This document shows positions 1 through 51,566 of a stretch of DNA of 64,000 nucleotides, in pieces (position 1 is the stretch's first letter; each line of letters starts with the position of its first letter). A model generated the notes under the pieces. It was given only the letters and a program-made list of their open reading frames with translations. It did not search any database and was not told the origin of the DNA. Location of the stretch: assembly GCA_964187785.1 (NCBI GenBank), contig OZ076409.1, positions 62,808,001 through 62,872,000 of the forward strand, written 5' to 3'. Made by a program: the position numbers and the translations under genes. This stretch comes from Amphiscolops sp. MND2022 (lineage: Eukaryota).

Positions 1-1
1 A

Positions 2-160
2 GAGGTCCTGTTGATGGCCTATTCTACTCCTCAATGGATTGAATTTACGCTTCTGCTCAATTCGCCGCACTTCGTGGTTCCCCGCTCTCACGGAATACGA
101 GGAATCATCGCAATCTACAAACTCCGCCGTATTTTACGCACGTGCTACGAAGGACTTTAA
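2..160 (+). CDS. 3' end of an ORF entering from the left edge (unknown product; possibly an accessory ORF of the retroelement)
   Basis: Frame 2 is open from base 2 to TAA at 158-160: EVLLMAYSTPQWIEFTLLLNSPHFVVPRSHGIRGIIAIYKLRRILRTCYEGL*. No recognisable motif. Confidence 0.3.
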   Translation, partial: EVLLMAYSTPQWIEFTLLLNSPHFVVPRSHGIRGIIAIYKLRRILRTCYEGL

Positions 161-610
161 AACACAACAATTCGAAGTGCTTATTCTTACATATCAGTAA
201 CATGCTCTCTCTTATCATATTTTAATTAAGTCTGGTACTGCATGCGATTTTCTCTCTTCTCTCAACAGCGTTCTCGTTAGTTCAATTTTACCAAACAACA
301 AAACTACTTTGTTTCACTCGTTTTTATGCTGAAATCGTCTTTGACTATTCGCATTCTACCTAAGTTTTTTACTGTGCTCTTTTCTACTTTTTGAGAAAAA
401 AAAACAAAAAAAACAAAAAACTAAACACTTAAAACAAATTAAACGAGCAGCAAAATAACTCAAATTAACTTATGAGAAGTAACGTCTTTGGTTTTAGTTT
501 GGGCCATTAACCATCTGAGTAACTGCCTTGGACGGTTTTTCTAGCATTAAGTTTGGCAAATTTTCTAGCTGTCGTGCTCGTTATCTCTCTAATTTTCACA
601 CTGACGGGCT

Positions 611-919
611 TTACTGTTCTTGAGCATTGCGGAGTCTCCGGTAACATTTATATCCAAAAAATGCACAGCCAAAGAGTATCAGGGGTAACACGACTGTCAA
701 CCAGGCCAACTGGTCATTGTTCGAACTTTTAACTTTTTGCTTCTCCACTGGTTTTATTTCACATATCACAGGGACAGTAGCACTCCATATAACCTTTCCA
801 CTGGTTGTCACAAATTTTGTTCCATTTGTGCAGCACCAAAACTTTTTGCCGCGCCACTGGTGCTCTTCACACGAAAAACAAACCATTATGTAAATGGCAA
901 TCACAACGCACGTTTTCAT
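611..919 (-). CDS. Small predicted type I membrane glycoprotein (102 aa), antisense to env
   Basis: N-terminal signal-like segment MKTCVVIAIYIMVCFS; Cys-containing ectodomain with NGT sequon; TM LAWLTVVLPLILFGCAFFGY; basic stop-transfer KCYRRLR. An acceptor-like TTTTCAG lies just upstream of the ATG on the minus strand. Confidence 0.55.
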   Translation of the reverse strand: MKTCVVIAIYIMVCFSCEEHQWRGKKFWCCTNGTKFVTTSGKVIWSATVPVICEIKPVEKQKVKSSNNDQLAWLTVVLPLILFGCAFFGYKCYRRLRNAQEQ

Positions 920-1251
920 TTTTCAGCTGAAAATACTAGGTTTTCCTTGCAACTTTGTTCTACACACAAAAAAAACCGGTGTTCCGTTGACACACCATGA
1001 CTTTTCATTCATTTTTCGTTGACATTTTCTCTACAACGCCCCTAATAAGACCTGCATCGGTCAATATTCACATAACACTCTGTTGACATTCTTTCAAATG
1101 ACCGACAAACAAACATTTTTCTCAATAGATCGCGAAAAGTCAATAATTTTCTTTGGTGACTGAACTCTGTCAAATTCTTCCGTGGGTCGATTGATAAATG
1201 CCGACAGGCGTACACAAACAAAAACTGACAAACATTTGACATTCTAAAACA

Positions 1252-1273
1252 ATTTTGCCATCTCTATCTTCAG
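1252..1273 (+). promoter_or_regulatory. Candidate splice acceptor for a subgenomic env mRNA
   Basis: Pyrimidine tract plus CAG (ttttgccatctctatcttcag) ending at 1273, 35 nt before the env ATG. Confidence 0.4.
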
Positions 1274-1308
1274 GCTCATTTTCTGGTTTGAACCATAACT
1301 GAGCAATC

Positions 1309-3663
1309 ATGCTGTTCTTTCTTGCCTACCTTGCTTTCACTCCTGCTTCCGTTTCTAGTCAATGGTCATCTAACATTGAAGCCTCTAATAACCCTAATGA
1401 TCTTCTAGAAAAAGGGATACTATTTAACGAGCGCAATAAAATCTTGCTTACAGAAAAATTTATCAGTGTGGAATTTCTTGTTCCTTTTCCCACTTATGAA
1501 TTTTCCTTGAAACCGGATATCGAACAACTGCTTCACCGCCTTTCGCAAATGTGGGACTTGCCCTCTATTTTTTGTCCCCTGAACTTCTCTAGTCACTTTT
1601 TATCAAATTCTTCTGGATTCAACGTCAATTGGATGCTCTTTCAAATCAATCATGAGATACACGAATCGGAAACCGACCTAAACACTATCCGGAATGAAAC
1701 CTCAATGTTTTTACGACCACCTTCTGAACAACAACCGCGTAAACGACGAGGCGCTGGTGTAGGCCTCGCTGCCCTGGCAGCTGTTGGACTTTTTGGGGGT
1801 GGTATCGCTATGGGCAGTTCCGACTCTTGTGGTCTTCAAGGAATTTTTGGGGGCTGTCACGATCAAGCCCGAGCCAATGCAGCCAACATACGGAGCCTTT
1901 CAGATTACCAAGATGTTCTGACCCAATTTGTCACAGAATTTCAACTGAACACTGACGAAAAATTCTTCTTAGTGAAAAACGAACTCGCCGCTCTTAATGC
2001 GATACAAGCTGAAATGTCAGAAACTCAAAACCGCAATTGGGCCATCATCCAAGAACAATTTGAAGTATTCGAAAATAACTTTCATATTTTACGCGACTGT
2101 AATCAAATGTTATTCTCTAACCAACAGTTGAATTTCAATTTTGACACACTATCTTCGCTTCTCAGTATGGTTCATGCTAGCATCAAAGCTTTTCGCTCAG
2201 CTTTATATGCTTTTCGCATGAACATTCTTAACTCTATTCCTGTTATTTTGCGAGGTCATCTACCAATGTCGCTTATTCCGATGGAATCACTCCTCGTGAT
2301 CTTGGAACGAGTAGCGATTGAACAAAGCACGGCAACAGATCGCTTATCCTTAGCAATTCCGATGACTGACCTCCTTTCATACTATGATTCTCGTTTGCTC
2401 GCTGATGCCGTTACAGTACCAGAAGGAATCTTGATGACCCTTAGTATACCGTTGGCTTCTCGACAAACTGTTTTCACACTCTTTGAGGCTAAAATAATTC
2501 CGATGCCTTACCCCGATGACCCTCAATTGGCTCTCAAGTGGGATATTGAGGCACCGTACTTAGCCATTTCAGAAGACCAAATGGAATCTTCTGTCCTCTC
2601 CGAAGCACAATTTGAACAATGCCTCGGCTCTTCCAAATATCGAATTTGTGCAGAAACTTTTCCTACTGAAATGGGTCATTCTTCATGTATTGCGACGCTC
2701 TTTTTTGACTCCTCTGTTGATGCACTTTCAGTTTGTGATACTTCCTTAGTTTCTTTACCATCTACTGAACAAGCCACTAACCTAGGTTTTGGTATATGGC
2801 TGATAACATCTGCCAATGATGATTTTATATTCCGAGAATCTCATGCAACAGCTGCTTCATCGAAAACACAATCATTTGCAGGCTGTCGTATCTGTATTAT
2901 CACCCTTGAATGTGGCATGCAAATCATGACAAAACACATTAAAATCAGGTCCGACTTATCAAGTTGCTCCCATATACCCGCAATAAAATTGCGAGTTTCA
3001 TTGCCAAACCCTCTAGCATCCCTAATCATGGAAGTTCCCCCTTTAGAGGATTTACCTTTATATGACTCGAAAGCAGAAGCAGGAGTGAAGCTTTTGAAAC
3101 AAGTACGTAAAGAACTCGTACATAGCCCAAGAGTTCGTGAAGTCAACCGATTAGTGGACATAGCCCGTCCCCTAGCGAGTGATATGAAACTTTTGAAACC
3201 CTCGCTCACCCGTGAATTTAATCAATATGTCCCCTTTAAAGTCTCTTTCACTCTGACTATTGTTGTTTTTATCGTTTCGACACTATTGCATTTACTATTC
3301 ATGTACATCTATCACAAGTATCATCTCGCTGATAGACTGTTTCCCAAAAAACTGATCAAAAACAAATTCAATGTCAAACCAAGTCTTGATGTTCCAGATG
3401 AACATAAAGAGGCCTTGCCTGACCTTCAGAAAAGTCTGGGACACCGCTTCAGTTTTCGCGTACCTTCCAAAAATCAAACGATTCATTTGCAAAAACCATC
3501 AACCTCTTTCATGGCTGATTCAGTCATAGGTAATTTCACTGATGGAAATACACAACTCAGCAGTAGCATGATTGATAATGTGCGCAGCCAGCTTACTGGC
3601 GGCAAACCTCTTGTCGCTCCTAATCAAATCCCCCCCGAACGTGAGCTTTCATCCAATTATTGA
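1309..3663 (+). CDS. env: Envelope class I fusion glycoprotein (baculovirus F / errantivirus Env-like), 784 aa, intronless and intact
   Basis: Signal peptide; furin site RKRR (aa 144-147, nt 1738-1749) directly followed by a Gly/Ala hydrophobic fusion peptide GAGVGLAALAAVGLFGGGIAMG; heptad-repeat region; F-like motifs GILFNERNKILL, GHLPMSLIP, SIPL..FTLF..IPMP, YLAIS..C, SCIATLF; Cys-rich ectodomain; TM VSFTLTIVVFIVSTLLHLLFMYIY at about aa 645-668; ~115-aa cytoplasmic tail. Confidence 0.85.
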   Translation: MLFFLAYLAFTPASVSSQWSSNIEASNNPNDLLEKGILFNERNKILLTEKFISVEFLVPFPTYEFSLKPDIEQLLHRLSQMWDLPSIFCPLNFSSHFLSNSSGFNVNWMLFQINHEIHESETDLNTIRNETSMFLRPPSEQQPRKRRGAGVGLAALAAVGLFGGGIAMGSSDSCGLQGIFGGCHDQARANAANIRSLSDYQDVLTQFVTEFQLNTDEKFFLVKNELAALNAIQAEMSETQNRNWAIIQEQFEVFENNFHILRDCNQMLFSNQQLNFNFDTLSSLLSMVHASIKAFRSALYAFRMNILNSIPVILRGHLPMSLIPMESLLVILERVAIEQSTATDRLSLAIPMTDLLSYYDSRLLADAVTVPEGILMTLSIPLASRQTVFTLFEAKIIPMPYPDDPQLALKWDIEAPYLAISEDQMESSVLSEAQFEQCLGSSKYRICAETFPTEMGHSSCIATLFFDSSVDALSVCDTSLVSLPSTEQATNLGFGIWLITSANDDFIFRESHATAASSKTQSFAGCRICIITLECGMQIMTKHIKIRSDLSSCSHIPAIKLRVSLPNPLASLIMEVPPLEDLPLYDSKAEAGVKLLKQVRKELVHSPRVREVNRLVDIARPLASDMKLLKPSLTREFNQYVPFKVSFTLTIVVFIVSTLLHLLFMYIYHKYHLADRLFPKKLIKNKFNVKPSLDVPDEHKEALPDLQKSLGHRFSFRVPSKNQTIHLQKPSTSFMADSVIGNFTDGNTQLSSSMIDNVRSQLTGGKPLVAPNQIPPERELSSNY

Positions 3664-3990
3664 TTGACTTCACGAACTGAATTTATGAAATCTATCATCT
3701 CATAAAACACTTTGCTTTTATATTTCTCTTGCAGTATATGTAAATTTATATAGCAGTAATCTGGCTAATAAACACCAAAGGATTCAAAATAATATCACCG
3801 AAGACAAACAACAACTGGATTCTTCACTCTGGACAACTTTGGATCTTGTGCTGCCCCTCTTTTCATCCTATTTTTATTTTGGATTCAATGCAAAACATTG
3901 GCATACTCAACTTTGGATTCTGTATTTCATACGACCTGACTCTTTCTTCAGCCGAATGATGGTTTCTTTTGGAGGCCGGAAAAGCTCGAT

Positions 3991-3999
3991 GGGAGGAAG
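3991..3999 (+). promoter_or_regulatory. Polypurine tract of LTR retroelement
   Basis: GGGAGGAAG immediately before TGTCATGTG at 4000, about 330 nt downstream of the env stop. Confidence 0.6.
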
Positions 4000-4362
4000 T
4001 GTCATGTGTTCCATGATGATCTTCTTGACCGAAAACAGAATATCAAAATTGAGAAGGAATATCTTGAATGCCTACCAATGACCTTTTATTTATATAAATA
4101 TAAACATACAAGTTGAAACTATTTGACTTTGACATTTAAAACTATTTGACATTTATTGAATACTTCACCAACTGAGAAAAGTAATTTTATAATCAGAAGA
4201 ACGAATAATACAGATAAAGAACAGTTTAGTTTTCCTAACCAAAAAGTGGATTGCGTCCCAAGCATCTTAGACTACCGCTCGACATCTTCTGAGGAATCGT
4301 CTTGAGAGAAGTGACAAAACCAAGACTCTGAAAATAAGAGTTATGACTCCTGGCCTGTAAGA
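4000..4362 (+). mobile_element. Putative 3' LTR of the env-bearing retroelement
   Basis: Starts with TG right after the PPT; TATA-like TATATAAATATAAA at 4091-4104; probable end at ...GGCCTGTAAGA (TGTAACA-like), after which decayed pol sequence begins. The right boundary is uncertain. Confidence 0.5.
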
Positions 4363-42075: not shown

Positions 42076-43879
42076 TTCAGCTAATTATTGGTTATGGGTA
42101 AACAGCTGGTGTGGGATGTCATGGTTCTGGTAGCTCTTGCGCACAGTCGTCTGAATCAAGGCTTTTAATGCAACCCGGGAACCACTGCCATCGAAGCTGA
42201 AGCGGGTAAAAATGCGAAGTATTGCGAAGTAATAGACAATAGATACATTTTTCAATCTATTGCAAACCTGTATGATCATTTTGAAAATCAAAAAATGAAT
42301 TGAAATCAAAATTTATAATTATGGCCTAAATTATTGCTGCAAACAAATAATTTTTATGTGACACATCATAAATTGAAGTTGACGGTTTCGACAACATGGT
42401 CAAATTTCACTGTCTGAGTTCGACAGTAAACGTTGATTACGTATCCGCAGCCCGACTGGTTTCGACAGGTCTGTTTATACAGTGATAAAGTATTTCTGAT
42501 AATGGCGGGACTCGCCAAGATATCGTCTGAAAAGAGATATTTAGGGACGTGCGAGAAGTTAGACATTTGCTTTGGTGTTTTTCTGTTCTTTCAATCTACC
42601 AACTTTCTTCCAAACTTCTTGACGCTGAAATTAAAACTTCCTTTAAATATCCATTTCAACCTCAACCTATAATCTGAAATAACATTTAATATAACTTAAC
42701 CTTCTTTTGGAGTCAACTCCACTTTCATCAAATTCAACGAAACGTTCAACTCACAACGTTTGAAATCGATGGCCGTGGAGGTACACGCGTCTCTGTAAAA
42801 TGCTCTTTCGTTCGCAAGACCATCAACGAGCTCACAGTTTTTTAAAACAACGGATTTCGTTGGTTATCAGATTGGCAATGCGGCCTGTGTTCTAGGAACT
42901 GTGAGCGACAGAGGTGCGTTCAAAGAAAATTATTGCAATTAGTTAATTTTTGAAAAAAACCTGTGTGTCATTGCAGCTCCTTGAACAAATGTTTCTATCG
43001 GTCGACTGGGATAATCGGTATGGAACCAAATTGTAGAAAACCAGTTTATAGAATCCAGTTTGTAGAAAAGTGAGGTTCAGTTTGTAGGATTTTTTCTACA
43101 GACTGGACCAGGGTATTATTTTTACGACCAGTTTGTAGAAAAACTGACCAGTTTGTAGAAAAAAAGTTTGTAGAATCGAGTTTGTAAATCATCAATTCAA
43201 GAAAAAAGTTAAGAACAATCATGTAGGAATGATGTAAGTTATAAAACGTGCCTCGCATTTGTCCGCATTTCCTCTAGTGCACGGCGGCTCCTTGGGGCCG
43301 CTTTTGTACCCATCGTAATAAGTGAGGTCAAACAGGAGGTGTGGTATATTTGGATCAAATTTTTGAAATTTTTTTGTGAGCGAAAATCGAGATCGAAACT
43401 TTTGAGATCGAACTGTTTAGTTTTTGCTTCTGCAAAGCGTTTAAATGCGTTTAAAATTTTTTAAGTAGTTCCCCCCGCCTAAGAGCGAGTCATATACGGT
43501 ATATGCACGCTTGCCCTCACTGTCGCAAAGACCAGCTCCCACCACGATCGCTCCGCGATCCTCCGTTCCCGCTAAATCTTTGCTCCTATTCGACCTCACT
43601 TAGAAAGATGGGAACATAAGCGGCCCCAAGGGGCTGCGGGGAACTAGAGGAAATGGGGGCATATCAGACGGCCAAAAACAATGTTATTTGGATCCGCTAG
43701 GTATTTGAAAACATTGATTCGATCTCATTTTCTTTGACCATTTCACTTCGATCTCCGATCTCAAGGACAGATTGTATTTTCGCGCAAATTCATTCAATCC
43801 AAACGCCCACAGCCGAACAGGAGCAAAACCTAGCGGGAACAGAGGAAGCAAGGTAAGGCAGACAACACGACACTGTCAG

Positions 43880-45500
43880 CGTATCGACCGATGCCAATTG
43901 GATGCCAGGCTGGTAAGTTTCTTCAAAAAATTCAACCTGATAGACGAAGAGCAGGAAGGCTTACATTCCAACACGAGCACAGTAAGGTCGTTGTAGAGGT
44001 TGAAAATGGAATGACAAGAATGAGCGGGAAAAAAGGCGCCTTGATATTCATTGACTTCGAGAAGGCTTTCGTTTCCGTATGGAACAATGGACCGCTCAAA
44101 AAACTCTATCAATCGGGACTTAGAGGTAACTTCAAAAGATTGATTGAAAATTTTTTGAAACGCCAATAACTCAGCCTAGAAACTAGTAATCTGAGAATCC
44201 AATACTTTGGAGCCAAAGATGGACTCCCACAAGGTATTGTGTTATCACCAATTCTGTTCTTTTTTTGTTTCCGACATGTTCAAAATCCTCTACTGTACGA
44301 TGTTCAAATTCGCTGACGATGGAAACCTCCGAGTGACAGGAGACACTGGAACTCAAATCTATCTGAATTGTCAATTTATTCTCAAACAACTGGAACGGTT
44401 GTGCAAAAGTTGGTGGATCGCAGTCAATGGTGATAAGACGTCAATATTCAACCTCAACAATGAGAACACGCACACCCCGAAGTTTTTTAGCGAAGCCTGC
44501 AAGGTCACCAAAAAGGCAAAAATCCTGGGTTTGATTGTTGACAACAAACTGATTTTCAACGAACATCTACATTAGGTAGAAGGGAAAATTGCTGAGCAGC
44601 TGAACATGTTTAAAAAGTTTTGTGGCTCTAATAGGTGTGTAAAGTAACCAACGCTCATAATGCTTTACCAAACTCTAGTGCTCCCCCGACTTCTGTGCGC
44701 GGCACTTGTGTGGGCCAGGAAACACGTTCAAGCGTTTAGGCGATTCCAATACACAACGCTCAAACTTAGCATAGGTACAAGTACGAAATTCGACCAGTTG
44801 GCAGCTGAAATACTGTACGGTCTCCCGCCTATGCAATCACAAATTAACATTACCACTCCTAAATTTGGAATTAAGCTTTCGAAATCGCAGGACATTTTTG
44901 GAAACTGTACCGGAAATGTCAATTTCCAAAAATATAAAGTGATAAAAACCTCATTGACGATTTTTATAAAGTCACACGTGCAACAAATTGTTTCACGGTG
45001 TCAACTTGCCATGCGTATCTGAAAAGTAGATGGAATAGAAAACCTAAGAACGCGCTCACGACTATCCCACTGGATTGGTCAATCACACAAATTGAATTGG
45101 AAGGGATTGTCTATCCAAAAACAAAGCAGACACCTCAAATCTACTCCCAACAAGCCCCGTTTGAATTGAAACGTGGAGCTGGCAGAATTTGCGTACAAAA
45201 TTTGGCGAGCGGAGACTCCACTATGCCCTTGTTGAGCAAATACAGAATCAGTCCTGCAATACTCATTCTTAGGCCTCCTGTACGAGCAGTTTCGTGCGCC
45301 CGAACTTGCCACAGGAAATATCTTTTCACTTGGCTGAATCACGAGCGTAAAAAATTTCATCAAAGATTCAGGATGTTTCGAAAGTAGAACAGAAAGGAAA
45401 CGGCACTTTCAAGACAAGTACTTTACTACTGAAGACGCATAATTTTTGAGGCAATGACTAACAGACCTTCAACTTTTACTTCATTTACACAGAACTGATA
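43880..45500 (+). pseudogene. 5'-truncated, decayed LINE reverse transcriptase (Jockey/CR1/I-like)
   Basis: FIDFEKAFVSVW..GPLKKL...GLRG, PQG.VLSP, FADDG, KILGLIVDNKLIFNEH and LYQTLVLPRL motifs; multiple stops and frameshifts. Confidence 0.8.
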
Positions 45501-46997
45501 CCACGTGCCTGAAACATATTTGTTAAATTAACCCGCAACTTAGGGGTTGTGTAGATTCTATCCCCCACCTAATTTGGGGGTCATGTACAGTGTATGCACG
45601 TTAGCCCTCACTGTCGTAAAGACCAGCTCCCACCACTATCGCTTCGCGATCTCCGTTCCCGCTATGGGGTGGCTGTAAATAGGTCGAATTTTTCTGGTCG
45701 AAAGGACAAAGGTCGAAGCTTTTGATCGAATTGCAGGGATCGAATGGAAGGTAAGGGGTCACTTGGGTTAATGGCATCTGGCTTGAAGTCATTTGACTTA
45801 ATACAATTGGTCACTTGACCTAATTTTTGTAAGCCAAGTGTCTCGGGTTTTGGCTTAAAATTACTTAGTTGAAAATACGTGGCAGATTTTGTCGATTTTA
45901 TTATTATAACGTCGTCAGCGTATAATTATAACGTCATATCAAGCACCCCTCGTATATGTCCCCATTTCCTCTAGTGCCCCCTGCCCCTTGGGGCCGCTTA
46001 CATTTCCATCTTGCTAAGCGAGGTCAAACAGGAGCAAAGACCTAGCGGGAACGGAGATCGCGGAGCGATCGTAGTGGAAGCTGGTCTTTGCGACGATGAG
46101 GGCGAGCATGCATACACCGCATATGCCCCACATTGATATTTCCGTGAGTTGACTTATTTATTCCGTGGGTTGGAATGGAGTTGGCTTAATTTTGTGGTCA
46201 CTTGGCTCTAAATTTACAAGCTAAATGACCCGACGAAAAAAGTAGGCCAAATGATTTTAAGCCAATATACTAGTGACCTGAATGGAATGCGGTCGAATTC
46301 GATCGAAGCCTCGGGTCGAAAACGTTTTTTGTTTGCCTCAATTCGGTTGACTATCATAATGTGGGGCATATGCTGTGTATGCACGCTCGCCCTCACCGTC
46401 GCAAAGACCAGCTCCCACTACGATCTCTTCGCGATTTCCGTTCACGCTGGGTCTTTGCTCCTGTTCGACCTCGCTTAGCAAGATGGGAATATACGCATCC
46501 ACGTGACGCCGACCCACAAATTCAAGAAATGGAAATTCAACAGTACATCCATCGTAAGGACAGCAAGATTATTGAATGTTTTTCCCAACCGATCGAAAGC
46601 AAAACACTTACTGGAACCAGTTTGTAGAAAACCAGTTTGTAGAATCCAGTTTGTACAAAACTGAGGTCCAGTTCATAGACTTTTTTTCTACAAACTGTAT
46701 TCAACAAACTGGTATTCTACAAACTGGTTGGGTCCACTTTGTAGAACACCAGTTTGTAGATTTTTGGAATGGAAGAAAAACAATACGACCAAAAATGTAG
46801 GATTGATGAAAAGTACAAAACGTGCCACATCAAACACCTAAAGGTTGAAAACATTCATGATGTGGCTTCCTTTCAACAATTCATCAGAAGAGTATCTTCT
46901 TTTTTGAAAAAAAACATTCAGTAAATGTTCCCTCGTGCACACACATATCAAGAGTCCGTATTGAAGATTAGGTTTCATGTATGTGTTGTAAAATATT

Positions 46998-47440
46998 ACC
47001 AAGGGGCCGCCGTGCACTAGAGGAAATGCGGACAAATGCGAGGTACGTTTTATAACTTACATCATTCCTACATGATTGGTCTTATTTTTTTTCTTCTTGA
47101 ATTGACGATTTACAAACTCGATTCTACAAACTGTTTTTCTACAAACTGGTCAGTTTTTCTACAAACTGGTCGTAAAAATAGCACCCTGGTCCAGTTTGGG
47201 GAAAAAATCCTACAAAGTGGACCTCACTTTTCAACAAACTGGACCAGGGTTTTAATTTTACTACCAGTTTGTAGAAAATTTGACCAATTTGTAGAAAAAC
47301 CGTTTGTAGAATCGAGTTTGTAAATCATCAATTCAAGAAGAAAAACAATAAGACCAATCATGTAGGGATGATGTAAGTTATAAAACGTGCCTCGCATTTG
47401 TCCGCATTTCCTCTAGTGCACCGCGGCCCCTTGGGGCCGC
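46998..47440. repeat. Large imperfect palindrome with CCAGTTTGTAGAA subrepeats; right arm duplicated at ~43100-43540
   Basis: 47000-47180 is the reverse complement of ~47255-47440 (for example GCACTAGAGGAAATGCGGACAAATGCGAGG versus CCTCGCATTTGTCCGCATTTCCTCTAGTGC). Confidence 0.8.
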
Positions 47441-47683
47441 TTTTGTTCCCATCTTAATAAGTGAGGTCAAACAAGAGGTGTGGTATATTTGGATCAATTT
47501 TTTGTGTGAGCGAAAATCGAGATCGAAAGTTTTGAGATCGAACTGTTTAGTTTTTGCTAAGTTTTTGCTCCTGCAAAGCGTTTAAATGCGTTTAAAAGTT
47601 TTTAGGTAGTTCCCCCTCCTAATAGCGAGTCATGTACGGTGTATGCACGCTTGCCCTCACCGTCGCAAAGACCAGCTCCCACC

Positions 47684-49389
47684 CAGGGATATCAAAACCA
47701 ATACCAATACCAATACCAAAACCAATACCAATACCACAATACCAATACCAATACCAATACCGTGCAAATCCTCAATACCAATACCAATACCAATACCAAT
47801 ACCAATACCAAACTTCTTCAATACCTCAATACCATTTTTGAATACCTTATATTTGCACAATTTTTACAATTTTGTATTCCCACTACGCATTCCTAATTTT
47901 TTTTTCACTTTTTTTGTACCGCGTTGAGCTTTTGACAATTTTTGTTTTCTCCAAAATTTCCTACCACACATTGAATAAAGTCATGGATGAGAAATTCAGT
48001 TTGATCACCAGCCAAATTGAAAGTCTGCTCAAGAATCGTGCTACTGAACAATTTCTCACCATCACTTTTGACAAATGGTCTGCCCAAGATGGAAAAAAGT
48101 ACATTGGTGTATATGTCTATGTGGAGGAGAAATCAATTTTTCCTGGATTGATTCCTTATAAACATTTTTGTGGCAGTGAAGAAATTGCGGCACATCTCCG
48201 GAAGTTACTGGATCTCTTTAGTTTAAAACCAAGTGGTATTACTGTTTCGTTTACGGATTGTGGTGCAGATGTGCAAAATGTTGCTGACATTTTTGGTTGG
48301 TTCTCGTTCCCTTGCCTCGCTCATGTCATTAATTTGTGTGTAAAAAAATAATTTTTGCAAACCCTGATGACGACAATATCGCACTGGAAGATGGCATTGA
48401 AGATCCGTTGGAGGATGCCGATATCGCGGTCGGGAAATTCCAAGATACTATCGAAATCATGCGTAGAGTGACTAAGAAGATTCACAGTTCATCGAAGATC
48501 ATGGATGCTCTTGAAAAAGTTCAACAAGACGCGGGACGACTGCCGTTAAAAATAATATGTGAAAATTCCACGCGTTGGAATTCCGTGTATGACTCTATGA
48601 AACGTTTCCTTCAACTCAAACCTTCACTTTGTCTTTTACTTTCCGAAGAGTTGGTTGAATTTGATTGGGATAAACTAGAAAGGACTTGTAAGTTGTAACA
48701 GCCATTCAAAGAGTGCACTATGAAACTCCAAGATGCCGGTACCTCTGCAGATACTGCTAAAAAGGTCATACTTCATCTCCAACCGCGAGTACAGAAAATG
48801 AACGTCGAGGTAAAAGCTGTGTTGACAAATTGGTTGACTGACAATCATTTTGTGGAAGCCCTCATAAGAAAACGGGTGGACTTTTATGACATGATGAAAG
48901 ATCAGCTGATATAAGAGGGATATGCTGAAAATGAGCATTTGTACAATCTCGACAACGATATTACCTTTGAAGACTTCTCTAAAAAGGTGACTGAAGATGA
49001 CTTCTGCATTAAAAACTACTTGAGAAGCTCTCGCCCACGAGTGTTGATCCCGAGCGTCTATTCTCCTTATGCAGATACTTAAAAAACTATTCACAAAATC
49101 GCATGACGGCTGAAAACCACGCGCGCAATGTCTTTATTACAAAAAACACCAAGTTCCTTCCACCTTCTGTGTAACTTGGTTTGATTTGCAATCAATTTAT
49201 TTTTCAATTCAAATTGTAATACACTATACCCTTTACTTTCAGAGAGATATTAGTATTTCGATCAATGCCAATATATGCGATCAGGTATTGATCAATACCA
49301 ATACTTGAGGCCAGGTATTGATCAATACCAATACGAATACCAAATTTGCTCAATACCAATACCAAAGTTTCGAGGTATTGATTTCCCTG
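47684..49389 (+). mobile_element. hAT DNA transposon with defective transposase
   Basis: TIRs CAGGGATATCAAAACC / CAGGGAAATCAATACC; perfect 8-bp TSD CTCCCACC; (CAATAC)n subterminal arrays; transposase motifs ITFDKWS, TDCGADV, PCLAHVINL and TRWNS split across ORFs 47872-48351, 48336-48698 and 48720-48914. Confidence 0.92.
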
Positions 49390-49648
49390 CTCCCACCACG
49401 ATCGCTTCGCGATACTCCGTTCCCGCCAAATCTTTGCACCTGTTCGACCTCGCTTAGCAAGATGGGAACATATGCGGCCCCAAGGGGTCGAGGGGCACTA
49501 GAGGAAATGGGGACATATCCGAGACACGTTTTATACTTTTCTAGAAAATTCTATCTGCGGCAATTCGATTTCGTGCCCAAAAATCAAAATTTCGATCCGA
49601 GTTGTTTCTATCCCATTCAAAAACTTGGCGTGTCGACCCGAGGACTAA

Positions 49649-50007
49649 CGGGTCAGGGACATTTCGTCACCAGCCATTTGGGCGACGATAAGGCGTCGGT
49701 CACATGGGCGACAAAAGTGTCGACCAAATGGGTTGATCAAATTGATCAATTAACTGACATATTTGAAGAGGTTAGCATATTTGTTGTATGGATCGGTCGC
49801 TTCGCTCCCTTCGCCAAGTAGCAACATTGAGGCATGGCAATAAGGCACGTCGCTCCGCTTCGCTTCGCTCCTGCATTTAGGGCACTAGGCGTGTGAGAAC
49901 ATATTTGGCCATTTAGTCTACGGGACATTTGGGCGACATTTTTGTCGCCGAAATGGCCCTGAAATTTTTGTCGCCCAAATGGCTGGTGACGAAACGTCCC
50001 TGCCCCG
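49649..50007. mobile_element. MITE with ~38-bp TIRs
   Basis: CGGGTCAGGGACATTTCGTCACCAGCCATTTGGGCGAC ... GTCGCCCAAATGGCTGGTGACGAAACGTCCCTGCCCCG; TSD not resolved. Confidence 0.75.
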
Positions 50008-51566
50008 GACGACAAATGGTCACTTGGCTTAATACCATTTGGCTTAAAGTCACTTGGCCTAATGACATTAGGAGTAAAGATAAGTGTCGTGATAAAAAAA
50101 ACTTCTATTGAGTAAACGTTTTCGACGTTTCCGTCATTGTCAAACTCTAGAAACAAATTATACATAAAACAATAGCAAACAACTTTAAGTTTTCAAAAAC
50201 TATAAACATTAAAACAAGTAATCCAGCACACTGGTTAACAGCTATCTTTAATTACACATTGAGACATCGACTAATGACATTAGTCACTTGGCCTAATTTT
50301 TTAAAGCTAAGTGTCTCAGGTATTGGTCACTTGGCCTAAAGTGACTTGACTTAAAACCACTTATGTGAAAACACCTGGAAGCTTTTGTCGAATTTATCAT
50401 TGTAACGTAGTCAGCGTATTATTATAACTGTCATATCAAGTACCCCTCGGATATTTCCCCATTTCCTCTAGTGCCCTGCGGCCCCTTGGGGCCGCATATT
50501 TTCCCATCTTGCTAAGCGAGGTCGAACAGGAGCAAAGACCTAGCGGGAACGGAGATCGCGGAGCGATCGTAGTGGGAGCTGGTCTTTGCGACGGTGAGGG
50601 CGAGCGTGCATACACCGTATATGCCCCGCATTATGATATTTCTGGGAGTTGACTTATTTATTCCGTGAGTTGGAATGGAGTTGGCTTAATTTCGTGGTCA
50701 CTTGGCTTGAAATTTTCAAGCCAAGTGACTCAAGAAAAAAATTAAGCCAACCCCCCCCCCCCCGGACTGACTCTGATTTCCGATCCCGTTCCTTCGACCT
50801 ACTTCCGCCCACCCCCGCTATGTCTTCGCTCCTGTACCACCTCGCTTAGGAAGATGGGAACACTGGAGGTAATGGCGGCATATCAGACGGCCAAAAACAT
50901 TGTTATTTGAAAACGCTAGGTATTTGAAGACATTGATTCGATCTAATTTTCTTTGACCATTTCACTTCCATCTCAGTGACAGATGGTATTTTCGCGCAAA
51001 TTCATTCAATCCAAATGCCCACCGCCGAACAGGAGCAAAGACCTAGCGGGAACCGATTTCGCGAAGCGATCGTAGTTGGAGCTGGTCTTTGCGACGGTGA
51101 GGGCGAGCGTGCATTTACCGGATATGCCCCACATTTCAGTTTTTGGATCATTCCTTTAGATCTTAGGCATTGGAGCTCTCAGGATGTCCAGTTTGTAACA
51201 AAAAATTCTCCAAACTGGACCTAATTCGGATAGTGGCTTTTATGAGTAGTTTGTTGGTTGTTTTTTTTTGTTACTGGGATAGTGGCTGGTATGGGGTTCC
51301 CTACTTTTGTTGCAGACCACGGGTGTGTGTTTTCTCCCCCAACATGATGATACACATGGCACTTCATTGATGACGAAGATCCTTGATAACTGATAGTGGA
51401 AAAATTGCAGTTCGGCAATTGCGTCACCGAGCCTACGCAAACAAAATTGTTTCATGTATATGTATATGATTCATGTATAAATATGTCGATGTTTAAGCTG
51501 CTTTCAGACTGCTGATATGTAAATTGTCAACATGTGTCCGACAATTGTTTACTAACTGAATCCATA

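Follow-up and report, generated by a model that had tools for sequence, protein, structure and literature searches.

The antisense open reading frame ORF-A (102 amino acids; positions 611..919, minus strand) is a genuine accessory gene whose product belongs to a so far unnamed family of proteins, and it is carried in an unusual cassette arrangement by an LTR retroelement of Amphiscolops sp. MND2022. Positions are those of the window, the whole stretch of 64,000 nucleotides that was analyzed. An earlier note, made from the letters alone, had described ORF-A as a small membrane glycoprotein encoded directly upstream of env and had suggested that it is an accessory gene. Since ORF-A lies inside the element and is kept in sister copies by purifying selection, this status is now well supported. 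As for its function, we tentatively favor the reading that the product is a small cell-surface glycoprotein cofactor, which works with the F-type Env in cell-to-cell particle transfer; we give this slightly less than an even chance.

The host of ORF-A is a young Ty3/gypsy LTR element of 14.3 kb with LTRs, gag, pol and env. The window starts inside the element, and the 3′ third is at positions 1..4348 (plus strand). The 3′ LTR (4000..4348, plus strand) is 100% identical to the 5′ LTR (L031:7-355), which lies ~9.6-10 kb upstream of the window start and is followed by a primer-binding site starting with TGG. The segment encoding ORF-A is located between these LTRs, and thus within the element and not outside it. 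A polypurine tract was found at 3991..3999 (plus strand), and a 5-bp target-site duplication (4349-4353) gives the same CCTGG at both element ends. Upstream of the window, gag possesses a zinc knuckle (L031:1137-2402), and pol (L031:2261-8049) encodes protease, a dUTPase-like region, RT, RNase H, integrase and a C-terminal macrodomain of the TARG1 type (E 1e-16). The order of the Pfam matches in gag-pol was zf-CCHC (E 0.009), aspartyl protease (E 0.015), RVT_1, RT_RNaseH and Integrase_H2C2. In the window copy, pol is split over two frames within the integrase. The env gene (1309..3663, plus strand) encodes an F-type class I fusion protein of 784 amino acids with a signal, an RKRR furin-type site, a hydrophobic fusion peptide and a C-terminal TM. 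In the Atlas search, the top matches of Env were Fusion_gly and Baculo_F (0.90-0.92). No significant match was obtained with Env in the Pfam and PDB sequence searches, and its fold model was unusable (pLDDT 35). The paired LTRs, the target-site duplication, the primer-binding site, the polypurine tract, the gag-pol order and the F-type Env show that the element fits the env-carrying Ty3/gypsy (errantivirus-like) elements.

Three further observations were made in and around the element. The dUTPase match between the protease and RT of pol (L031:2261-5848) is weak (E 0.012). Just upstream of the 5′ LTR, decayed LINE-like sequence contains a 1.23-kb tandem duplication, which is 99.9% identical (C1:62795239-62797706, L032). 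Positions 43054-51135 of the window hold a dense, MITE-like cluster of repeats, both direct and inverted, that are 50-207 nt long; among them is a 207-nt hairpin at 46999-47434.

The minus strand indeed contains, at 919-611, the 102-amino-acid frame described in the earlier note. Its claimed type I topology was borne out by hydropathy, which gave an N-terminal hydrophobic stretch, a TM at ~71-87 and then a basic tail. The signal peptide and the TM were judged by hydropathy, conservation and an AlphaFold model. In the predicted layout of this type I membrane glycoprotein, a signal (~1-16) is followed by a four-Cys core (17-53), a stalk, the TM and the tail; the NGT sequon (32-34) and the Cys residues of the ectodomain (17, 29, 30 and 53) are in place. 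The note had also held that such a topology is unlikely in a chance ORF. In agreement with this, the topology filter was passed by one ORF in the real window, which was ORF-A, and by none in 40 shuffled windows. The AlphaFold model (35-sequence alignment, pLDDT 68) possesses helices at 2-14 and 68-101 with four short strands between them. From the alignment and the model, the four-strand core is predicted to comprise 37 amino acids and to hold the four conserved Cys and the glycan site. W22, T34 and C53 are invariant in 35/35 aligned sequences, and no invariant residue was observed within the TM. The sequon follows the CC in 30/33 representatives, and a Cys near the TM end was found in all 33. 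Intact forms have 98-138 amino acids, with a steady ectodomain size, a variable tail length and 1-6 basic residues in the 15 positions after the TM. Despite divergent tails, 11/12 long-tailed subfamilies (e.g., L053, L063, L067, L097 and L111) end in R/K-x-x-S-hydrophobic. Such endings resemble 14-3-3 trafficking motifs.

ORF-A matched no Pfam family. Its profile gave nothing significant against PDB (best E 1.4), and Foldseek gave 0 matches at E<=0.001 in the PDB and viral libraries. The VIA wide search gave nothing significant (best Z 4.2, helical), and in the Atlas search (best 0.85) recognition was below the threshold. Because the model is middling, these blank fold searches do not show that the fold is new. 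One near-identical match was present in a large protein collection. When 1.8 billion proteins were searched with the profile, 71 matches were obtained, many of them 93-100% identical to copies from this genome, and the 10 ENA records looked up behind the profile matches were all unnamed. Two matches, P0069 and P0064, are 26-37% identical to this genome and are encoded on contigs under 2 kb; therefore, they probably come from another organism. As these two divergent sequences have no close match here, the ORF-A family probably extends to other organisms. Reading P0069 and P0064 as transcripts was not accepted, the contigs themselves being unseen.

Sister copies retain the frame. The genome contains 86 matches to ORF-A with 25-100% identity, and 80 of these are without an internal stop. 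Two of the 86 are second matches at loci already counted and three are outside the 10-kb set; 81 loci, the window and 80 others, were examined at 10 kb. ORF-A is full length in 62/81 loci and truncated or broken in 19/81. At 95% DNA identity, the full-length copies, of which 54 are distinct in sequence, fall into 33 subfamilies. Pooled pN/pS of ORF-A was 0.43 (Fisher p 3e-29, eight independent pairs), and it was 0.36 within young subfamilies. Over the same DNA, the mirror frame gave 0.55, and four further frames gave 1.04-1.32. A codon model for 32 representatives, with one read-through form left out, gave an omega of 0.24 overall. Thus, the dN/dS comparison proposed in the earlier note shows purifying selection.

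These values bear on the reading that ORF-A is an antisense frame that arose by chance or is dead, or that it is a host gene fragment carried along without use to the element. The missing family match and the 19 truncated or broken copies are in line with it. However, pN/pS is lowest in the ORF-A frame and stays low in the young subfamilies, most loci keep the full length, the acceptor described below is kept in 70/72 copies, and no ORF-A copy away from env was present among the loci fetched. The selection tests refute this reading, and we consider it scarcely credible.

The selection is not uniform along the protein. In the 32 representatives, the regional omega was 0.093 for the core (17-53), 0.62 for the signal, 0.54 for the stalk and 0.30 for the TM and tail. 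A small single-pass protein of a virus-like element might also be a viroporin or a channel of the small-hydrophobic type that oligomerizes via its TM. However, the conservation sits in the ectodomain, and the TM is less constrained and without an invariant residue. We therefore regard a channel as very improbable.

ORF-A is the first gene of an antisense cassette of ~3 kb between pol and env. The right-hand third of this swappable cassette occupies positions 1..1020, and the remainder is upstream of the window. The second antisense gene (L033, minus strand, 5673-5366, 5279-5014, 4945-4779 and 4706-4509) has four predicted exons, which splice into 312 open codons, and its GT-AG sites are at matching places across subfamilies. 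The N-half of its product is zinc-finger-like, with an integrase-like His/Cys pattern seen by eye, and the C-half is an OTU-like protease. In hhalign, the C-half matched 7 Pfam-OTU regions of this genome at 95.4% (E 1.7e-8), and 30 shuffles gave <=1.2%. Motifs are present in the OTU order: a GxGxC-W-type motif with an invariant Cys in 29/29 and FHCEP, invariant in 25/25 aligned exons. When single exons were scanned, no Pfam PF02338 or PDB match was detected; the domain is split over three exons. Over the 81 loci, the second slot holds an OTU-like gene in 75, a JmjC-like gene in four, neither in two and both in none. In a scan of nine slot-2 proteins with JmjC PF02373, the distant form L139 was above the cut-off (E 6e-7) and another, L142, just below it (E 3e-4). 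The other seven gave no PF02373 match; six of them belong together in a family with an 80% match to the L139/L142 group, and the assignment of the main JmjC-like family is indirect, through this match.

Some cassettes contain additional genes. ORF-B (95 amino acids, L033:5873-6160, plus strand) starts ~127 nt before the window, and its 3′ part is at positions 1..160. It lies between the two antisense genes in some subfamilies and is absent from others, is 27-99% identical where present, occurs with both OTU-like and JmjC-like cassettes, and matched no Pfam family. A conserved sense-strand ORF of ~94 amino acids, unlike ORF-B by eye, follows pol in JmjC-like clades (L133, L134 and L149). At L135:5714-6379 (minus strand), a third kind of slot-2 gene encodes 221 amino acids; Pfam gave no match, and in phmmer the protein matched none of the other slot-2 products. 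In L037, L080 and L104, part or the whole of the cassette is tandemly duplicated inside the element. Elsewhere in the genome, OTU domains were observed in very long open frames (L166, L167 and L168; 2244-2747 amino acids), which are probably other retroelements.

Clades with an Env that is ~50% identical keep an ORF-A homolog in the same slot, and the second gene there is OTU-like or JmjC-like. In hhalign, the distant ORF-A forms matched the main family at 52% and 84%, values that are modest but exceed those of the shuffles (<=5%). The distant homologs mostly start with M-C or M-x-x-C and are without a signal peptide. Since their start context is A-rich, an upstream signal exon would not be expected.

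The cassettes are exchanged between backbones. In comparisons of the window with L038 and L049, DNA identity was mostly 90-100% on both flanks and 42-82% in the cassette, with sharp borders; the low-identity stretch begins ~2000 nt before the window and ends at position 1000. L040 and L044 gave a similar sharp-bordered pattern with borders elsewhere. Among 30 representatives, 44/435 pairs had integrase and Env both >=95% identical, and their ORF-A proteins were only 17-54% identical. Tree lengths for integrase, Env and ORF-A were 1.4, 2.2 and 22.2, respectively. These representatives had been chosen to differ by >5% in ORF-A, which does not force gaps so large, and one of them, L049, has a truncated ORF-A. 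In 12 pairs whose backbones are closely related, ORF-A showed a synonymous divergence between 1.2 and saturation, as against 0-0.39 in integrase and 0.03-0.32 in env. The reverse was observed between the window and L036 (integrase dS 0.74, ORF-A dS 0.10) and likewise between the window and L037. Fast point evolution was rejected as the source of the diversity because silent and non-coding sites diverge too, the borders are abrupt, and there are pairs with the reverse pattern. Judged from these alignments, the cassettes are old and were recombined between near-identical backbones. The right border is ~100 nt upstream of the ORF-A ATG. Thus, it is the OTU/JmjC cassette, not env, with which ORF-A moves in recombination.

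This recombination bears on a second reading, that ORF-A is a host counter-defense or superinfection-exclusion factor on the surface of the producing cell, which binds a restriction factor or receptor of the host or removes it. In that case, the cassette as a whole would be a module directed against the host, and balancing selection would maintain its diversity. Support comes from the finding that a single Env occurs with widely differing ORF-A proteins, and from the joint inheritance of ORF-A and a gene for a JmjC-like enzyme or an OTU-like protease. The independence of ORF-A from the Env sequence, the coexistence of deeply diverged cassettes on close backbones (the 12 pairs above), the TARG1-type macrodomain at the end of pol and the R/K-x-x-S-hydrophobic tails are also consistent with it. 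However, the core is the most constrained part of the protein, no sign of an arms race is seen at the whole-region level, and the slot beside env is kept while the enzyme gene is replaced. We regard this reading as unlikely, although it deserves serious attention.

The position of ORF-A relative to env is one of the grounds for the Env-cofactor reading. The claimed divergence from env was confirmed: the env ATG is at 1309 on the opposite strand, 390 nt from the ORF-A ATG. The head-to-head spacer (934..1308), in which the right cassette border falls at ~1000-1020, is the putative divergent promoter region. TGACA/TGTCA occurs there at 6.5 per kb, compared with 2.2 per kb elsewhere. The env gene is the head-to-head neighbor of ORF-A on the opposite strand in 81/81 loci, and it was also beside ORF-A in 18/18 further loci, the places of which partly overlap the 81. 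The start-to-start spacing is 354-513 nt in the 16/33 representatives where the env start was placed. When loci were picked by env alone, an antisense ORF with the C..CC..C pattern and a TM was found just upstream of env in 20/32, as against 0/224 control bins. An intact ORF-A was absent by the pattern scan in the other 12; four of these matched the ORF-A profile, and several others look decayed or rearranged.

We favor a cofactor of Env because ORF-A stays beside env at all loci inspected, outlasts the swaps of the enzyme gene and is most constrained outside the cell. ORF-A persists while the slot-2 gene varies, even in the clades with ~50% Env identity. The strong constraint on the ectodomain core with its three invariant residues, the sequon after the CC, the Cys near the TM end and the F-type nature of Env point in the same direction, as does the acoel-type leader of the host described below. 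In paramyxoviruses, F proteins leave attachment and triggering to a separate glycoprotein. Several results stand against a cofactor. Near-constant Env proteins (dN 0.005-0.02) are paired with very different versions of ORF-A, and thus there is no lock-and-key co-evolution. Furthermore, ORF-A recombines with the enzyme cassette instead of env, 12/32 env-picked loci lack an intact ORF-A by the pattern scan, and no leader-bearing retrocopy of the cassette was found (see below). In addition, known attachment proteins are far larger than the ORF-A core.

If ORF-A is a cofactor of Env, it would be transcribed from a divergent promoter in the 390-nt spacer and, since the spacer is shared, would be made in the same cells as Env. 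Its mRNA would receive a spliced leader at the acceptor, and ORF-A might head an operon of two genes. The protein would then enter the ER, be N-glycosylated, form two disulfides, be S-acylated at the Cys near the TM and be delivered to the plasma membrane. At the surface, ORF-A may attach to the target membrane or hold it, or may trigger Env.

The earlier note had pointed to an acceptor-like TTTTCAG before the ORF-A ATG. This splice acceptor, a candidate trans-splice site, is at 927..933 on the minus strand, 7 nt before the start codon; in the window it is also half of a palindrome. TTYAG was present 1-10 nt before the ORF-A ATG in 70/72 copies, compared with 97/3977 background ATGs, and the second gene has a comparable acceptor before its ATG in most copies. 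No conserved cis donor was found in the spacer; strong donors were present in 10/33, were scattered, and did not include the window copy. The stop context of ORF-A had no conserved donor, and a further exon downstream was rejected. The host genome contains an acoel-type spliced leader (2436 matches vs 1 for the control), with a tandem array. The matches are to a published acoel leader, and 30% of genes are reported to be trans-spliced in the species studied (PMC9911081). The array at C1:16.23-16.41 Mb, much of it at a 904-bp period, is likely an SL RNA gene cluster. Because the host has spliced-leader arrays, trans-splicing of ORF-A at the acceptor is plausible.

In cassettes without ORF-B, 204-395 nt separate the two antisense genes, and a poly(A) signal was present between them in only 1/8 examined. 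The acceptors, the lack of a spacer donor, the host leader and the short intergenic gap with a rare poly(A) signal suggest that the antisense genes form a trans-spliced operon driven from a divergent promoter. A promoter internal to an element and serving env has a precedent in Tor elements (PMC4402516). Alternatively, the acceptor of ORF-A could be served in cis by a donor far away, such as one in the 3′ LTR. No leader-bearing retrocopy (spliced fossil) of a cassette gene was detected in 66 loci of 2436, 234 and 88 pattern matches, and no frame >229 amino acids was found among the 150 best OTU exon-2 matches. Dispersed leader copies directly head ORFs in L172-L207, several of which have PHD-like Cys resembling those of non-LTR ORF1 by eye. 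These leader-headed families may transpose as leader-capped RNAs.

Small membrane proteins similar in build to ORF-A have been described as fusogens. Like ORF-A, sORF2 (PMC11952523) and the reovirus protein p10 FAST (PMC3961370) are short single-pass proteins with a small ectodomain, a juxtamembrane basic patch and a variable tail. sORF2 is likewise encoded by an LTR element, and p10 likewise has Cys in the ectodomain and near the membrane: its 36-40 amino acid ectodomain holds a cystine-loop hydrophobic fusion peptide, and a palmitoylated di-Cys and a polybasic motif are also described (PMC3961370). ORF-A might therefore be a stand-alone FAST-like cell-cell fusogen, similar to sORF2 of the Drosophila MDG1 group, and give the element a second transfer route. 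Its single TM, steady Cys-rich ectodomain, Cys near the TM in all representatives and basic patch would suit this role, as would the M-C or M-x-x-C starts of the distant clades, mostly without a signal peptide. On the other hand, the N-terminal myristoylation motif that served as a search criterion for sORF2 is absent (0/33 start with MG), and the proteins of the window clade carry a signal peptide and, midway along the core, a conserved glycan site. ORF-A also differs in its four-Cys core of ~37 amino acids plus stalk, and no sequence similarity was shown. Moreover, the element already has an F-type fusogen; the sORF2 candidates reported in PMC11952523 are all in forward orientation and were defined in elements lacking Env, whereas ORF-A is antisense beside env in all 81 loci. 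We consider a fusogen quite unlikely, and a cofactor of Env remains the reading that we favor.

The element shares the LTR-gag-pol-env order, the F-type Env with furin site and fusion peptide, and several young copies with the env-carrying Ty3/gypsy elements (errantiviruses) of metazoans (PMC13524379), but differs from them by the 3-kb multi-gene cassette between pol and env. In the main text of that paper, supplements aside, "antisense", "accessory", "small ORF", "macro", "acoel" and "Xenacoelomorpha" have 0 occurrences. Conserved antisense genes in the 3′ half are known from plant Retand, Grande and RIRE2 and from HTLV (HBZ and APH-2) (PMC11963269). In most copies, ORF-A has the Retand/Grande-type placement, antisense to gag-pol and between pol and the 3′ LTR. 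The products of those genes are nuclear or DNA-binding (PMC11963269), whereas ORF-A is a predicted membrane glycoprotein upstream of env with an enzyme-like cassette partner; with no Pfam match and a signal plus TM topology, it does not resemble a TRP28-type, DNA-binding or nuclear product. The Tor elements of Oikopleura (PMC4402516) are a precedent for a promoter in the pol-env interval of an invertebrate element with env, as is inferred here. No divergent antisense gene was seen in the account of Tor, whereas the spacer here is flanked by genes on both strands. In rotifer Vesta/Juno (PMC5408684), one lineage has a paramyxovirus-type F env, and others have small Cys-containing TM ORFs or captured enzymes (GDSL, DEDDy). 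There, the extra ORF takes the ORF3 position instead of env; here, env, the TM gene and the enzyme gene coexist, the last two being antisense. Thus, antisense extra ORFs (PMC11963269) and small TM ORFs and captured enzymes (PMC5408684) were already known in LTR elements. Literature searches, with subscription journals and supplements outside their coverage, found no paper on the ORF-A cassette.

How most env-bearing Ty3/gypsy elements use Env to spread has been described as elusive (PMC13524379). Such elements are treated as simple gag-pol-env units; here, a second membrane protein is fixed beside env across deep clades. The receptor-binding or contact step that is missing for F-type Envs has a direct candidate in ORF-A. 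The cassette is also a case of complex accessory-gene content (OTU-like, JmjC-like, macrodomain) in an element from an invertebrate, and its antisense writing suggests a way in which a retroelement could retain an intron-containing multi-gene cargo. Furthermore, dozens of natural combinations of cassette and backbone in one genome are material for studies of conflict between host and element. In a wider and doubtful proposal, the element would be an invertebrate "complex retrovirus", in which a trans-spliced antisense operon supplies an attachment or fusion helper for Env and an interchangeable anti-host enzyme (deubiquitinase or demethylase), with serotype-like cassette swaps. If this is true, the swaps would change the target cell and the counter-defense at once.
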